Positions 4,335-46,523 of a stretch of DNA of 48,569 bases are shown here, one piece after another. The stretch covers positions 1 through 48,569 of the forward strand of contig CAXYYA010000028.1 of NCBI GenBank assembly GCA_964293155.1, written 5' to 3'. The notes beneath the pieces are model-generated. The model was not told the origin of the DNA, did no database searches, and worked only from the letters and a program-made list of their open reading frames with translations. Source of the DNA: an uncultured Bacteroidales bacterium (lineage in GTDB: Bacteria; Bacteroidota; Bacteroidia; Bacteroidales; Dysgonomonadaceae). Positions within the stretch are counted from its first letter, which is position 1. Every line of letters starts with the position of its first letter. The position numbers and the translations under genes are program-made.

Positions 4335-5906
4335 ATGAAAAGAAAGTTTATATATATAATTAATATAGCAATTGCAGCACTGCTTTTTTCATGTACGAAT
4401 CTTAACGAAGATGTATATGATAAAATACCCGCAGACGAATTCGGAAACACTCAGGCTCAGATAAACTCCATTATTGCACCTATTTACAGGACACTGACAG
4501 GTCTGTGGCCCGGTGATGGTTTTGTTATTGCGGAAGAAGTTGGAGATATGGCCATTACACCGACAAGAACCGGTGGTGACTGGTGGGACGGCGGTATTCA
4601 CATGGAACTCGGACGTCACGTTTGGCAACCCCGAAACGGCGCGATTAACGGTTTGTGGAATACGGCAAGTAACGGCACGTCAACCTGTAATAAAATTATG
4701 GCCATTATTGAGGCAAACAAGTCGCTCGATGAAACTCAAAAACAGGCTGTGTATGCCGAGATCAGGGGCGTAAGGGCATTTTGGTATTATATTTTTCTGG
4801 ATTACTTTGGAAATGTACCTTTAGTAACGAGTTTCAATGATCAGGAGTTGCCTGCAACCAAGACCAGAAAAGAAGTATATGATTTTGTTGTAAGTGAGTT
4901 GAACGCGATAAAAGACCTGCTTCCCGCCGATGTTTCAGCCAAAACATACGGAAAGTTTACCAAAGGAGCCGCATATTTTCTGTTGGCGAAAATGTACCTC
5001 AATGCCGAGATATTTACCGGAACATTAACAGCTAACTCCTTTACAAAAGGAGCAGCCGAATGGCAAAAAACCATTGATGCCTGCGATGCGGTTTTGGACT
5101 TGCCTTATATCCTTGAACCAACATGGACACTGAATTTTGCCGTGAATAACGAAGCATCGAAAGAGATAATCTTCCCGTGTGTATTCACAAAGAAAGAATG
5201 GGGTAATTACATCCTTCACCGCACGTTGCATTACAAAGATCCCATCGCGTTGGGCATAAGTATCAGTCCTTGGAACGGTATTAGTGCAGTGCCGGATTAT
5301 GTAAACAGTTTCGATAACGCTGATAAGCGAAAAGCATGGTCGTTCCTTACCGGACCTATGATTGATCCGGCTACGGGTACCGTTTTATATACGCAGCACG
5401 GCAGGCCGTTGATTCACACCGTGGATATTCCCATGATCGCCGGAACAACGAGTAAATATGATGGTGTTTGGGGAGAAGTGGAACAAGAAGTCGGTGCAAG
5501 ATGTTTCAAATGGGCTATCGAACCCGGTATGTCGGCAACGTCTGAAAACGATTTTGCATTTTTCCGTTTAGCAGATGTTTATCTGATGAAAGCGGAAGCA
5601 TTGGCCAGACTGGGAAGAACAGCCGAAGCTTTGCCATTGGTTAACGCGGTAAGAACGCGTGCTTTTGATGATAAAACAAAATTATTGACTGCCGTAACGC
5701 TGAATGATATTTATAAAGAACGTCGTTTTGAGTTGGCGTGGGAGTGCTATACGCGTCAGGATATGATCCGTTTTGGAACGTTCACCGCTCCGCATTTTTT
5801 GAAACCGGAAGTAACGCCAATTTATCGCATCTTGTTACCGATACCTGTTCAGGCATTGGAGGCGAATAATAAACTGACACAGAATCCGGGATATCCTGGT
5901 TTATGA
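4335..5906 (+). CDS. SusD/RagB-family nutrient-binding outer-membrane lipoprotein
   Basis: 523 aa with a lipoprotein signal (MKRKFIYIINIAIAALLFSCTN). It is TPR-like helical and lies 19 bp downstream of the SusC-like gene, the canonical SusC/SusD pairing. Confidence 0.9.
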   Translation: MKRKFIYIINIAIAALLFSCTNLNEDVYDKIPADEFGNTQAQINSIIAPIYRTLTGLWPGDGFVIAEEVGDMAITPTRTGGDWWDGGIHMELGRHVWQPRNGAINGLWNTASNGTSTCNKIMAIIEANKSLDETQKQAVYAEIRGVRAFWYYIFLDYFGNVPLVTSFNDQELPATKTRKEVYDFVVSELNAIKDLLPADVSAKTYGKFTKGAAYFLLAKMYLNAEIFTGTLTANSFTKGAAEWQKTIDACDAVLDLPYILEPTWTLNFAVNNEASKEIIFPCVFTKKEWGNYILHRTLHYKDPIALGISISPWNGISAVPDYVNSFDNADKRKAWSFLTGPMIDPATGTVLYTQHGRPLIHTVDIPMIAGTTSKYDGVWGEVEQEVGARCFKWAIEPGMSATSENDFAFFRLADVYLMKAEALARLGRTAEALPLVNAVRTRAFDDKTKLLTAVTLNDIYKERRFELAWECYTRQDMIRFGTFTAPHFLKPEVTPIYRILLPIPVQALEANNKLTQNPGYPGL

Positions 5907-5925
5907 TCATTCACTAAATATAATA

Positions 5926-5957
5926 GAAAATGCTCAGGTTTTTCCTGAGCATTTTTT
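5926..5957. terminator. Bidirectional rho-independent terminator hairpin between convergent susD-like and hisS
   Basis: gaaaatgctcagg-ttttt-cctgagcattttt is a perfect 10-bp stem with U-runs readable on both strands. Confidence 0.6.
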
Positions 5958-5973
5958 ATCATTTGCCTTAGAA

Positions 5974-6008
5974 CAAGCGAGTTCCGACTCGCTTGATTTT
6001 TTTATTTT
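5974..6008. repeat. REP-like palindrome caagcgagt-tccg-actcgcttg plus T-run (copy 1)
   Basis: Perfect 9-bp inverted repeat followed by tttttttatttt. A near-identical palindrome recurs at 7432-7451 on the other side of hisS. Confidence 0.5.
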
Positions 6009-6012
6009 AAAG

Positions 6013-7374
6013 CTATTTGGAAATCGCTTTACCCAATTCTTCACCCGAAACCAATTTCTGTTCTCCCGATTTCATATCCTTCAACGTAATTTTACCTTCC
6101 TTCATTTCGTTTTCTCCCATTAACGCGACAAAAGGGATATTGTTGCTGTCGGCATACGACAGTTGTTTCTTCATTTTGGCGGCTTCGGGATAAATTTCGG
6201 CACAAATTCCTTTGTTTCGCAATTGGGCGAGGAGAGGCAAGATATAAGATTCTTCCTTATCGCCGAAATTCACAAAAAGCACATCGGTGGCGTGTGTAGA
6301 GTTTTCGGGGAAAAGGTTGAGTTGGTTGAGCACATCGTAAATGCGGTCGGCACCGAAGGAGATGCCGACACCCGATACGCCCGGCAGTCCGAAAATGCCC
6401 GTCAGGTTATCGTAACGGCCGCCGCCGGTGATGCTACCGATCTCTGCGTCAAGCGCTTTTACTTCGATAATAGCGCCGGTATAATAGTTGAGTCCGCGGG
6501 CAAGGGTAAGGTCGAGTTCAAGTTCGCAACCGATGCTTAATAAACCGGTTTTGTTGAGAATAAATTCCAGCTCCTCCACACCTTTCAATCCGGTTTGGGA
6601 GACCGAAAGCACGCTTTTCAGCGTTGCAAGTTTGTCGTTGTTCGTGCCTTCGAGCAATATGATAGGCTGCAATTGTTGAATAGCGGCTTCGGAGATTCCT
6701 TTTTCCCGAAGTTCTTCGTTCACCTTTTCCAACCCGATTTTATCCAATTTATCGATAGCCACCGTGATGTCGGTAATTTTATCGGCTTCGCCGATGATTT
6801 CGGCAATTCCCGAAAGTATTTTTCGGTTGTTGAGTTTTACGGATACACGGATATTTAATCTGCGAAAAACTTCATCAATGATCTGGATCAGTTCCACTTC
6901 GTTGAGCAGCGAATCAGAACCCACCACATCGGCGTCGCATTGAAAAAATTCGCGATAACGACCCTTTTGCGGACGGTCGGCACGCCACACGGGCTGAATC
7001 TGAAACCGCTTGAATGGAAACGAAATTTCGTTGCGGTGCATTACCACGTAGCGGGCAAACGGTACGGTAAGGTCGTATCGCAATCCTTTTTCCGAAATTT
7101 TGTTGGCGGTTTTAGCCGAGTTTCCTTCGGTAACGTCATCGGCGTGCATACTCGACAGGAAATCGCCCGAGTTCAATATCTTAAACAGCAGTTTATCGCC
7201 TTCTTCGCCGTATTTTCCCATCAATGTGGAAAGGTTTTCCATGGCGGGCGTTTCGATCTGGCGGAAGCCATATAGGCGGTACACTTCTTTAATGGTGTCG
7301 AAAATATAGTTGCGTTTCGCCATCTCTTCGGGCGAAAAATCGCGCGTTCCTTTGGGTATGGACGGTTTTTGCAT
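6013..7374 (-). CDS. hisS: Histidine--tRNA ligase
   Basis: 453 aa. It starts [25 protein letters not shown], has class II aaRS motifs, GGGRYDNL, and a C-terminal anticodon-binding domain. ATG start confirmed. Confidence 0.95.
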
Positions 7375-9310: not shown

Positions 9311-9490
9311 CGGGAACATCATTTTAAAATTAACGTGAGTTCAATACAAGAAAAGGCTCTTAATTGATTTATAATAAGGTAATAAGGTCTTTGTTCTATT
9401 TTAATTTAACTCTACTAAGGTTGCTTTTAAAAAATAAGGTTTCCAATACGCTTTGAACCCTGCCTACCGCAGGCAAGCTTATTTACAAAT

Positions 9491-9839
9491 ATGATTATCC
9501 GCATAATGTCCTACATCAATTGCCACGTCCCTTTACAGGCTGTGTAAAAAACATCGCAACAGTATCAATTTGTCATTCCGACGATAGGAGGAATCTTATT
9601 TGTCATAAATTATAGACTCTTCACTCCGCAAAGCTGCGTTCAGAGTGACAAAAAGACACCTAATTTTCATTTTTACACAGCCTCTTTAGGGCGTGGTTTT
9701 TGAGATACAGAGCAGATAGGCTTTAGCCGAAATTTATACTATTATTGGGCTGAAGCCCGTAATTCTTAGACATTATTATCCCACGACTTAAAAATCGTGG
9801 CAATAGATAAAGCCGTTAGGACACTTTGCGGATAATCAT
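9491..9839. mobile_element. MITE-like element, family A (TIR ATGATTATCCGCAnARTGTCCTA...ATTGCCACG), copy 1, carrying a nested family-B insertion
   Basis: Terminal inverted repeats atgattatccgcataatgtcctacatcaattgccacg and cgtggcaatagataaagccgttaggacactttgcggataatcat. The internal gggctttagccgaaatttat...gggctgaagccc core is shared with the copies at 17755-17960 and 46226-46420 (the latter in reverse orientation). No ORF. Confidence 0.6.
9536..9684. mobile_element. MITE-like element, family B (~149 bp, TIR AGGCTGTGTAAAAA), copy 1, inserted inside family-A copy 1 with a TTTA target-site duplication
   Basis: caggctgtgtaaaaa...tttttacacagcctc, with an internal hairpin cactccgcaaagctgcgttcagagtg. 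It is flanked by direct TTTA/TTTA. The uninterrupted target, ccctaaaggg, is seen in the family-A copy at 46226-46420. Confidence 0.6.
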
Positions 9840-9984
9840 TTTTACGAATAATATAACCTTAATAGGAATCAACGCAAGCAAAGTTTCAGCCTTATTAGCT
9901 TATTTACTGATTCTTATGAAATGAGTTGTGTCAAACTCACGTTAATTATTTCTTTCGCATTTTACACGGATTAGAACCGATAAT

Positions 9985-17703: not shown

Positions 17704-17754
17704 AGGGAAAAGGTCTGTACAACATTTGTTATAAAATTATTTTTATGATTATCC

Positions 17755-17960
17755 GCAAAGTGTCCTAATATCAATTGCCACGGCTTTCAAGCCGTGGAAG
17801 GTATGAATTTAATTAAATTGGCTTTAGCCGAAATTTATGTAAACTTCCCGATTGCGGAATAAGTTGGGCTAAAGCCCATCTCATAGATACATCTAATTAT
17901 CCACGCCATAAATGGCGTGGCAATTGACACGGTTAATTAGGAAGGTTTGCGGATAATCAT
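17755..17960. mobile_element. MITE-like element, family A, copy 2 (206 bp, intact TIRs, no family-B insert)
   Basis: atgattatccgcaaagtgtcctaatatcaattgccacg ... cgtggcaattgacacggttaattaggaaggtttgcggataatcat, with the internal ggctttagccgaaatttat...gggctaaagccc core. Confidence 0.6.
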
Positions 17961-18455
17961 TATTATTTTAAACGCTAAGACGCCAAGCCGCTACGTTATT
18001 TTCTCATTTAAAAGAAAGCCTGTCTCTCAGATTATTAGTGAGGTGAAAAATAACTCTTTGCGCCTTCCCGTCTTTGCGCCTTTGCGTACATAAAACGCTT
18101 TTATATGCTGATGTGCGTTATTTTTTGATGAAATGTTGTTAGCGATGTAGTCCCTATAATTATCGGATCACTTCAAACAATGATAAATTGAAAAGATTAT
18201 CATGATTTTGATACAACTTCTTCAATTAACCATAAACTTAGAAACTGTTTTGAATTTTTTCTGACGATGTTTTTTATTCATTTTTTGATGGATTTGGATT
18301 CCTGCCTGCGGCAGGCGGGTTCGTTACGAATCAAATAGCGGGCTATTTGGAAGAAAGGAAAATTCAAAGACGCAAAAAAGGGCAAAAAACAGTCTGAAAG
18401 AATCAGAAAAATAGTTAAAAAACAAGATTCGTAAAATTCAAAACAGTTTCTTACA

Positions 18456-22987: not shown

Positions 22988-23142
22988 CGTAATTTATCCT
23001 ATATTTTTATTGGGCTACAAAGATAGTGAAAATGCTTTATTTGGCAAAGACGTAAAGTTTATCCGCAATGTTTCGAGGCTGAGAATTTTCAGTAGTCATG
23101 GCTAAAGCCGGTGTTCACGTTTGCTGGGTTCTCCGCTTTAAA

Positions 23143-23292
23143 CAGGCTGTGTAAGAAACATCGCAACAGTATCATTTTGTCATTCCGACGATAGGAGGAA
23201 TCTTTATTTGTCATAAATTATAAACTCTTCACTCCGCAAAGCTGCGTTCAGAGTGACAAAAAGACACCTAATTTTCATTTTTACACAGCCTC
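23143..23292. mobile_element. MITE-like element, family B, copy 2 (TAAA target-site duplication)
   Basis: ~95% identical to 9536-9684 and flanked by direct TAAA/TAAA. A solo family-A right TIR remnant (ttgcggataatca) lies at 23317-23329. Confidence 0.6.
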
Positions 23293-23650
23293 TAAAAGCA
23301 GGGTTATTAAGACGTATTGCGGATAATCAAAAAAATGACTATTTTTGTGAACGGGAAAAACATTTGTAAATGCCCATTAATTTGGTTGATTATTAAATCG
23401 CATAAATGAAGATGTTGGCAACGATTTGTAAATGTAAACTACAAAAATTTGGTAAATGGACAAGATTTGGTTAATAACAATAGCAACTGCAATTTTTTTG
23501 ATCATAAATTTTCTTTTTTATAAAACGCTCAACGTGTATTACAAAGAGGAATTTGGCAAAAAGACGTGAAAATTAGGAGGAGGGAGAATATACTTTTGGC
23601 AGGCATCAATAATTGTCAGCACAATAGGTGCGTTGATAGCAATTTATTTT

Positions 23651-46110: not shown

Positions 46111-46225
46111 CTTATGCGCAAATATATATGTTAAAAACGTCATTTGCAAGTAAATTAACAGATAATATTTTATGTTTTAGAGCAGGTTTTTTGGGAAAAA
46201 TGATAAGGTTAACCATCAATTTTTC

Positions 46226-46420
46226 ACATTATCCGCGAAGTGTTCTAACGGCTTTATCCATTGCCACGACTTTTAAGTCGTGGGATAATGATGTCTAAGA
46301 ATTACGGGCTTTAGCCCAATAATAGTATAAATTTCGGCTAAAGCCTATCTGCTCTGTATCTCAAAAACCACGCCCTAAAGGGACGTGGCAATTGATGTAG
46401 GACATTATACGGATAATCAT
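46226..46420. mobile_element. MITE-like element, family A, copy 3 (reverse orientation, left TIR slightly degenerate)
   Basis: ...cattatccgcgaagtgttctaacggctttatccattgccacg ... cgtggcaattgatgtaggacattatacggataatcat. The core is the reverse complement of 9690-9760, and it carries the uninterrupted ccctaaaggg site. Confidence 0.55.
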
Positions 46421-46523
46421 ATTAAATTATTATTCATGTCATTTCCTCTTTATGCCCAATTTTGGGTGGGGACGTGACAAGATGAAACTGTTCTTGCTCT
46501 TTTGATACTGCCTCTTTTATTGT

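Follow-up and report, generated by a model that had tools for sequence, protein, structure and literature searches.

The window analysed here is a 48,569-bp contig (CAXYYA010000028.1, assembly GCA_964293155.1) of a metagenome-assembled genome (MAG) from the Dysgonomonadaceae (Bacteroidales), of the Petrimonas/Proteiniphilum type according to the names of the NCBI protein-cluster members. Its gene content is that of an ordinary chromosome, with SusC/D, HisRS, an ABC1 kinase, a peptidase M3, TsaB, Ffh and an SPFH protein. Reading of the loci and a search for repeats across the window revealed four copies, c1 to c4, of a short element called family A. The intact copies are 195-218 bp long and non-coding. 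Family A is very probably a non-autonomous DNA transposon of the IS1595 family, i.e., a miniature inverted-repeat transposable element (MITE), and two of its copies host a second small element, family B.

The first copy, c1 (9490..9840, forward strand), lies between convergent genes and consists of a 202-bp MITE, a nested 149-bp family-B element and the 4-bp duplication made by the latter. Its terminal inverted repeats (TIRs) are found at 9491-9514 (left) and 9816-9839 (right). The best-preserved copy is c2 (17744..17961, forward strand), which is 218 bp long, lies 41 nt past a CDGSH gene and has its TIRs at 17745-17768 and 17937-17960. The third copy, c3 (46225..46421, reverse strand, 197 bp), is inverted and located downstream of the SPFH gene. 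It belongs to the c1 subfamily, has no B insert and is mutated at its end at 46226 (ACATTATCC). The decayed copy c4 (~23054-23331, no strand assigned) is located 68 bp upstream of ffh and measures ~124 bp once its B insert and one copy of the associated target-site duplication (TSD) are subtracted. It is composed of a degenerate left TIR (AAGTTTATCCGCAATG, at 23055), the GGCTAAAGCC core at ~23090, a degenerate hairpin and a right TIR.

The original prediction, made by reading the letters of the window, had listed three copies (9491-9839, 17755-17960 and 46226-46420) and a lone right TIR at 23317-23329. All these repeats are present in the sequence, and a hidden Markov model (HMM) built from family-A copies gives c1, c2 and c3 E-values of 1e-39 to 1e-52. 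The positions given for c1 and c3 stand, c2 begins at 17745 instead of 17755, and the lone TIR is the right end of the fourth copy, c4, which is a weak match to the HMM (E ~4e-6 against a tiny target). In addition, the true limits of the element are displaced outwards by 1 nt at either end, and 8-bp target duplications adjoin them. The TIRs had been estimated at ~38 bp; the ends are indeed inverted repeats, of which only ~24 bp are conserved as TIR, the remainder being a spacer and the foot of a subterminal hairpin. The intergenic position of the copies holds for all four.

Without its insert, c1 is 95-96% identical to c3 in inverted orientation. The two share a block of 48 nt (98%) and one of 153 nt (96%), between which c1 has ~150 extra bases. 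The identity of c2 to c1 and c3 is ~70% by BLASTN (67.9-69.3%) and ~85% over the aligned columns of a gapped global alignment, with an equal architecture. The similarity ends exactly at the TIRs and the flanking regions are unrelated. The TIR core GATTATCCGC occurs in the window six times exactly and 17 times with at most one mismatch; shuffled sequences gave 3.7 ± 1.9 occurrences, and none of 100 shuffles reached 17.

The interior of family A is highly organized. Read in the common orientation, an intact copy starts with one variable base, followed by the 24-bp TIR (consensus ATGATTATCCGCAAAG(T/C)G(T/A)CCTAA), a short spacer, (C/T)AATTG and a first hairpin, H1, of the form CCACG-stem-loop-CGTGG. 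About 25 nt further comes H2, GGCTTTAGCC, then RAAATWTAT and a variable stretch. The third hairpin, H3 (GGGCTRAAGCCC), is preceded by TTG and separated by ~25 nt from H4, which is again of the CCACG...CGTGG type. The copy is completed by CAAYTG, a spacer ~7 nt longer than the left one and the right TIR. A central pair, GGCTTTAGCC / GGGCTAAAGCCC, can be found in each intact copy. The hairpins of c2 are located at 17778-17797 (H1), 17820-17829 (H2), 17866-17877 (H3) and 17901-17920 (H4). In c1, H1 is split by the B element into two arms (9523-9531 and 9689-9696), and H2, H3 and H4 lie at 9719-9728, 9747-9758 and 9781-9800.

The inner stems of H1 and H4 vary between copies while complementarity is kept (TCC/GGG, AC/GT, GC/GC, CCA/TGG, CCT/AGG). 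In the alignment of these stems, 98.8% of the cells are paired, falling below 45% when the pairing is shifted by one column, and double compensatory changes are present at two of the eight pairs. The covariation score of 0.269, obtained on a small data set of 10 rows with ~5 distinct stems, compares with 0.095 ± 0.03 for shuffled data and was reached by none of 500 shuffles. The family-A hairpins are thus structural. Folded as single-stranded DNA, c2 reaches -51.9 kcal/mol (z = -9.4), and a copy from a Paludibacteraceae MAG (L001), folded as RNA, reaches -99.1 kcal/mol (z = -14.2). Family A also has a polarity, because the HMM always scores much higher in one orientation (for c2, 161 bits forward and 108 bits in reverse). 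Direct reading of the copies revealed no conserved open reading frame (ORF). A central micro-ORF of 19 amino acids in c2 was considered and rejected, since c1 has a stop codon in that frame. Rfam gave no match at gathering score in the window, in L001 or in the short derivative L003 described below.

A partner for these ends was found by searching the IMG/VR database with the bare 16-nt TIR. One match, L031 (the same element as L045), has an inverted TIR partner 1 kb away, and the 316-aa ORF between the two ends is an IS1595-family transposase with a Zn-ribbon and a DDE_Tnp_IS1595 domain (NF033547, 213.7 bits; PF12762, 3.6e-23; PF12760, 4.3e-07). Relatives of this transposase in IMG/VR are flanked by ends of the family-A type, and the matching TIR type is found around several independently detected insertion sequences (ISs) of the IS1595 family (L031/L052, L054, L058 and L064). 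The TIR of L058, AAATGATTATCCGTATAATGTCCG, matches the left TIR of c3 at 21 of 22 positions. Members of the L031-type transposase clade are numerous in Bacteroidales, Bacteroides eggerthii (P0150 type) and Proteiniphilum among them. Both P0150 and P0189 carry PF12762, and P0189 is named by NCBI as an IS1595 family transposase of unclassified Proteiniphilum. Its IS, 1086 bp long (174-1259 of L189), is inserted in an IS256-type transposase gene. Both ends of this IS read ATGATTATCCGCAAAGTGTCCTA and match the left TIR of c2 and the right TIR of c1 at 24 of 24 positions. The match is 21/24 for the left TIR of c1 and the right TIR of c2, and 20/24 for the left TIR of c3. Beyond base 24 the similarity to family A stops and the interior is unrelated.

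Two sequences carrying IS1595-type features stand out. A 2.3-kb element (1352-3658 of L054) has family-A-type TIRs of 27 bp and a perfect 8-bp TSD; at roughly double the length of a plain IS1595-family IS, it probably contains a passenger gene. On L001, positions 1496-1924 encode a 142-aa ORF that covers no more of an IS1595-type transposase than its N-terminal Zn-ribbon region (24.5% identity, E = 4.5e-6); this ORF may be a truncated or domesticated remnant.

The register of the ISs places the real ends of family A one variable base outside ATGATT...AATCAT. With these limits, c1 is bordered by TTTACAAA on the left (9482..9489) and TTTACGAA on the right (9841..9848), which match at 7 of 8 positions, and c2 by a perfect repeat of ATTATTTT (17736..17743 and 17962..17969). 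Perfect 8-bp repeats also border the Paludibacteraceae copies L002 (ATATTTTT) and L003 (TTTTATTT, which is AAATAAAA in the element's own orientation), as well as the ISs in L031 (AAAATAAT), L054 (TAATCTTA, which is not of low complexity) and L189 (TTATCTTT). The duplication of the L189 IS is in the same register as that of family A. When left and right flanks were deliberately mismatched, none of 156 pairs agreed at all eight positions and three agreed at seven. A 2-bp 'AT' duplication, or no duplication at all, had also been considered; this was rejected when the IS in L031 placed the true end 1 nt further out. Duplications of 8 bp are usual for IS1595-family members (PMC8101967). Copies whose TSD is intact each represent an independent insertion.

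Family A is assigned to the IS1595 family because its ends (c2 left and c1 right) are identical at 24/24 positions to those of a Proteiniphilum IS1595-family IS and because the 8-bp duplications of the two agree in register. It combines several defining features of a MITE: a non-coding element below ~500 bp, with TIRs, TSDs, dispersed copies and the ends of a transposase-encoding element. With the Bacteroidales ISs of the P0189 and P0150 types it shares the terminal 24 bp, the 8-bp duplication and A/T-rich targets. In contrast, family A has no transposase gene and is five times shorter, and the ISs lack its four palindromes.

Copies are not restricted to the window. An exact-pattern scan (TIR plus hairpin foot) covered one genome per species in 185,579 species genomes. 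In the Paludibacteraceae MAG 5N463, it revealed the family-A architecture on four contigs, corresponding to three unrelated loci and one copy in a duplicated region: L001 carries a complete copy, L002 and L004 represent one and the same copy inside the duplicated region, and L003 is a 94-bp derivative made of a TIR, one hairpin and a TIR. Two further matches, L005 and L006, are doubtful. A scan of metagenomes for the TIR plus the full hairpin gave three real matches and three chance ones. The real matches come from two metagenomes and comprise family-A copies on two contigs of one of them (L013 and L015) and a 91-bp derivative (L017). The ~90-bp one-hairpin deletion derivatives, one of which has an 8/8 TSD, suggest that the central part of family A is dispensable. 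In several samples, short-read contigs of 99%-identical sister strains terminate inside the A TIRs, 26 nt into c1 for L007, 42-64 nt into c3 for L020-L026 and 4-25 nt into c2 for L192-L194. This is the behaviour of an assembler at repeats. A BLAST search of a plasmid collection with family A gave no match.

These relatives decide against a local segmental duplication limited to this part of the chromosome. Four copies within 48.6 kb and the near-identity of c1 and c3 would be in agreement with such an event. However, the similarity stops at the TIRs with unrelated flanks, c1 and c2 each own a different 8-bp TSD, c2 is only ~70% identical to the other two by BLASTN, and the TIRs equal those of an IS. 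The presence of the same architecture at unrelated loci of another genome and in metagenomes argues in addition that it does not stem from local duplication. With copies in other genomes carrying independent TSDs, segmental duplication is effectively refuted. The dispersed, MITE-like nature claimed in the original prediction is thereby borne out by the TIRs, the 8-bp TSDs, the unrelated flanks, the IS1595-family ends and the relatives elsewhere; confinement of the copies to the window, which had been named as the observation that would speak against it, is not what was found.

The subterminal hairpins could also be read differently, as the transposase recognition sites, instead of the TIRs, in a relic of a single-strand transposon of the REPIN/RAYT or IS200/IS605 type. 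Two inverted subterminal hairpins with covarying stems are indeed present, as in REP/REPIN sequences and at IS200/IS605 ends, and a related genome (L011) has a Y1_Tnp gene between REP-like repeats. Nevertheless, those repeats (GGCGCAAGTTTGCAACTTGTGCC) are unrelated in sequence to family A. Family A also has long conserved TIRs, identical to those of a DDE IS of the IS1595 family, and 8-bp TSDs; HUH/Y1 elements make no TSDs, and IS200/IS605-type elements are recognized by asymmetric subterminal hairpins and the lack of both TIRs and TSD. Even the 94-bp derivative with a single hairpin, L003, retains its 8/8 TSD. The RAYT/REPIN idea, prompted by the gene in L011, was rejected on these grounds, as was the IS200/IS605 type, and a single-strand origin is considered highly improbable.

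The region of L011 itself (4400-6320) belongs to GCA_023424395.1, which shows 86% protein identity in the ABC1 kinase adjoining c1. REP-like palindromes (GGCGCAAGTTTG(C/T)AACTTGTGCC...) lie on either side of its 182-aa Y1_Tnp (RAYT-like) gene, which adjoins a duplicated 84-aa fragment of the 3' end of hisS.

An IS1595-derived MITE thus remains the preferred reading of family A, and its mobilization would proceed as follows. An IS1595-family DDE transposase would be supplied in trans by a full-length IS, located elsewhere in the genome or resident at an earlier time; judged from the identity of the ends, an enzyme of the P0189 type probably mobilizes family A. The transposase would bind the 24-bp ends and excise or copy the element. 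Insertion into A/T-rich intergenic DNA would occur by an 8-bp staggered cut, and its repair would leave the 8-bp direct repeats. The interior does not derive from the IS. It is a conserved, polar set of four palindromes (H1-H4) giving an extremely stable fold-back, whose hairpin loops have served as landing sites for family B, with insertion at the apex of the palindrome and duplication of four loop bases. Family A would be active in the source genome, now or formerly, and its internal hairpins would matter for transposition or persistence instead of the control of host genes.

Several observations weigh against this reading. No IS1595 transposase gene was found within the 48.6-kb window. Clear TSDs were not found for c3, c4, L001 and L013, the ends of c3 and c4 being also mutated. 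The strict TIR-plus-hairpin pattern is rare, with real matches in a single other species genome out of 185,579 and on three contigs from metagenomes; the number of diverged copies is probably underestimated by such exact-match patterns. The interior is conserved across two Bacteroidales families with a fixed polarity, which goes beyond the needs of a purely selfish MITE. Finally, no orthologous empty site was found for the A copies, as the intergenic DNA of relatives at 86-89% identity is unalignable and the contigs of close strains break at the repeat. For this reason we infer the mobility of family A from its TSDs.

Next to the family-A copy of L001, ~4 tandem copies of a 48-bp unit are present (640-800), and a solo A-type TIR (TGATTATCTGCAAAGCAAC) is found at 1000-1020 of the same contig. 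One of the two doubtful matches, L006 (Candidatus Merdivivens pullistercoris), contains at 1300-1476 a ~165-bp long inverted repeat, located in an ABC transporter operon between the gene for the substrate-binding protein and that for the permease. The repeat has the ends ATGATTATCCGCAAAATCACC... and ...GGTGGTTCGCGAGTAATCGT and a TTGCCACGG motif inside. It may be distantly related to family A, or the similarity may have arisen by chance.

The nested element in c1, B1 (9536..9684, forward strand), is 149 bp long, has 15-bp TIRs (CAGGCTGTGTAAAAA / TTTTTACACAGCCTC) and sits in the loop of H1. It is bordered by TTTA at 9532-9535 and 9685-9688, so that the site reads CCACGTCCC-TTTA-[B1]-TTTA-GGGCGTGG. 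The paralogue c3 represents the empty site, with an intact hairpin (CCACGTCCCTTTAGGGCGTGG) and a single TTTA. That one A copy served as a target for family B, as first proposed from the letters, is therefore supported. The second copy, B2 (23143..23292, forward strand, 150 bp), is 97% identical to B1 and lies in the loop of the degenerate c4 hairpin, between TAAA duplicates at 23139-23142 and 23293-23296. In a sister strain (L028), the c4 hairpin has no B element, and the surrounding 100 bp are unusually diverged. Presence/absence polymorphism is thus visible for family B (c3 compared with c1, and L028 compared with the window). In two other sister-strain samples (L029/L030), a B element begins in the H1 loop of an A copy upstream of ffh, in the orientation relative to A opposite to that of B1 and shifted by 1 nt. 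All three B copies seen (B1, B2 and L029) are located in A hairpin loops, and at least two, probably three, independent insertions are represented.

The ~300 bp upstream of ffh (window 23034-23340; positions 1-200 of L028 and L029/L030) are hypervariable between strains with 99.4-99.7% identity elsewhere. The window carries the decayed c4 with B2, L028 a diverged c4-like sequence without B and with a different right side, and L029/L030 a different, better-preserved A copy with B in its H1 loop. It has the appearance of a hot spot for recombination or insertion, in the promoter region of an essential gene.

In IMG/VR, the B TIR 15-mer, SAGGCTGTGTAAAAA, is the end of many elements, both MITEs of ~159 bp and ISs of 1.4-1.8 kb (L073, L100, L164 and L173), all with 4-bp TSDs. 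The IS in L100 encodes an IS1182-family transposase (NF033551, 419 bits). The match between the ends of B and these ISs covers only 15-17 nt, which was the search pattern itself. The reconstructed targets of B-type elements are the centres of imperfect palindromes, clear in 20-nt reconstructions and not evident in the 4-nt flanks. From the 15-17 nt of TIR, and from a TSD length and a type of target that B has in common with these elements, we infer that family B is a MITE of the IS1182 type with landing sites in A hairpin loops. The IS1182 family has been reported to target palindromes and stem-loops (PMC4923244, PMC5678879). Family B resembles it both in the ends shared with ISs encoding an IS1182 transposase and in the insertion at palindrome centres. 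Its member IS1272 (IS1272/TnSha1) deletes the targeted stem-loop and leaves no duplication (PMC4923244, PMC5678879), whereas B and its IMG/VR relatives keep the stem and duplicate four loop bases. This outcome is the 'loop-only duplication' drawn as pathway c in PMC5678879. A BLAST search of the plasmid collection with B returned one weak match, in Calothrix (73.6% over 87 nt).

The widespread B-type clade of IMG/VR (L071-L182, e.g., L087, L073, L100 and L151) has GAGGCTGTGTAAAAAC ends and 4-bp duplications that are mostly GGCC. Its targets are palindromes of the type GNCNGC...GGCC...GCNGNC, with the insertion at the centre; L087 sits in the AACT loop of a perfect terminator hairpin. The interior of B itself (window 9560-9660 and 23170-23265) contains GTCATTCC-N10-GGAATC, CACTC...GAGTGAC hairpin motifs and three TTTGTCA words. 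Similar motifs are also present in the related genome L011 (1150-1180 and 1500-1600), and they may represent a more widespread short dispersed motif.

The hairpins had also been proposed to face outwards and to act on the transcription of neighbouring genes. Around c1, c2 and c3, one or two terminator-like matches per region were found against 0.3-0.6 expected, with stems of 5 bp only, and scans for sigma-70-like promoters and intrinsic terminators were at or near the shuffle expectation. A sigma-70-like TTGCCA-17-GATAAT motif (10/12) occupies the same place in c1 (9775-9803, reverse strand), c2 (17896-17923, reverse strand) and c3 (46261-46289, forward strand). It spans H4, points into the element and is not conserved in the Paludibacteraceae copies, nor is it of the promoter type of Bacteroidota. 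No T-tract follows the hairpins, which are symmetric and lie inside the element; because of this, and because the scans are near shuffle expectation, the transcriptional idea finds no support in the sequence.

A broader form of this idea, compatible with a MITE origin, would have family A carry, or be exapted as, a cis module: a bidirectional terminator or attenuator, an mRNA-stabilizing fold-back or a small structured RNA. The Dysgonomonadaceae and Paludibacteraceae copies have a four-hairpin interior of conserved polarity in common, which shares nothing with the interior of the IS, and the fold is very stable. In addition, the copies are all intergenic, with c1 between convergent genes and c4 close upstream of ffh, and H1 of c1 and c3 contains a T-G pair that would be a G-U wobble only in the RNA of one strand. 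On the other hand, no hairpin is followed by a T-tract, the terminator-like matches are near expectation, the promoter-like motif points inwards and is missing from the Paludibacteraceae copies, and no Rfam family matches. The orientation of the copies relative to neighbouring genes is inconsistent, and intergenic placement is expected anyway from purifying selection against genic insertions. A cis-acting role is consequently regarded as unlikely. Similarly, there is a slim chance that the polar four-hairpin interior is a functional cargo, acting as a fold-back on neighbouring transcripts or as a 'landing pad' that attracts IS1182-type elements such as family B and diverts them from host terminators.

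Elsewhere in the window, positions 36145-36554 comprise three to four tandem repeats of 117 bp (72-83% identity) inside overlapping ORFs (36084-36687), which suggests a repetitive protein or a repeat array.

As a short, intergenic, structured, dispersed element with inverted repeats, family A resembles the Correia elements of Neisseria, the enterobacterial ERIC sequences and REPINs. Correia elements differ in their ends and duplicate TA, and REPINs, which depend on a RAYT (Y1) protein, lack a TSD, in contrast to the 8-bp TSD and IS1595 ends of family A. An IS1595-derived MITE has been described in Haloquadratum walsbyi, with ISHwa6 as its partner, a length of 165 bp, inverted repeats of 25 and direct repeats of 8 (PMC3852290, Table 4). 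Going by this description, it is similar to family A in size class, ~25-bp TIRs, 8-bp duplication and IS1595 partner; its host is archaeal, and no conserved multi-hairpin interior is described in that table. A literature search with the TIR string gave only unrelated primer matches. Family A is a genuine MITE family derived from a Bacteroidales IS1595-family IS and, as far as checked, previously uncatalogued.

The general understanding of MITEs is left unchanged by this family, which is an ordinary case of selfish DNA. It provides a clean pairing of a MITE with its parent IS for the Bacteroidales of anaerobic digesters, with 24/24 ends and an equal 8-bp duplication. Since these repeats interrupt the short-read contigs of sister strains, the pairing is useful for the annotation of these genomes. 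The nested B insertions, in turn, are natural examples of an apparently IS1182-type element landing in hairpin loops with a loop-only duplication.

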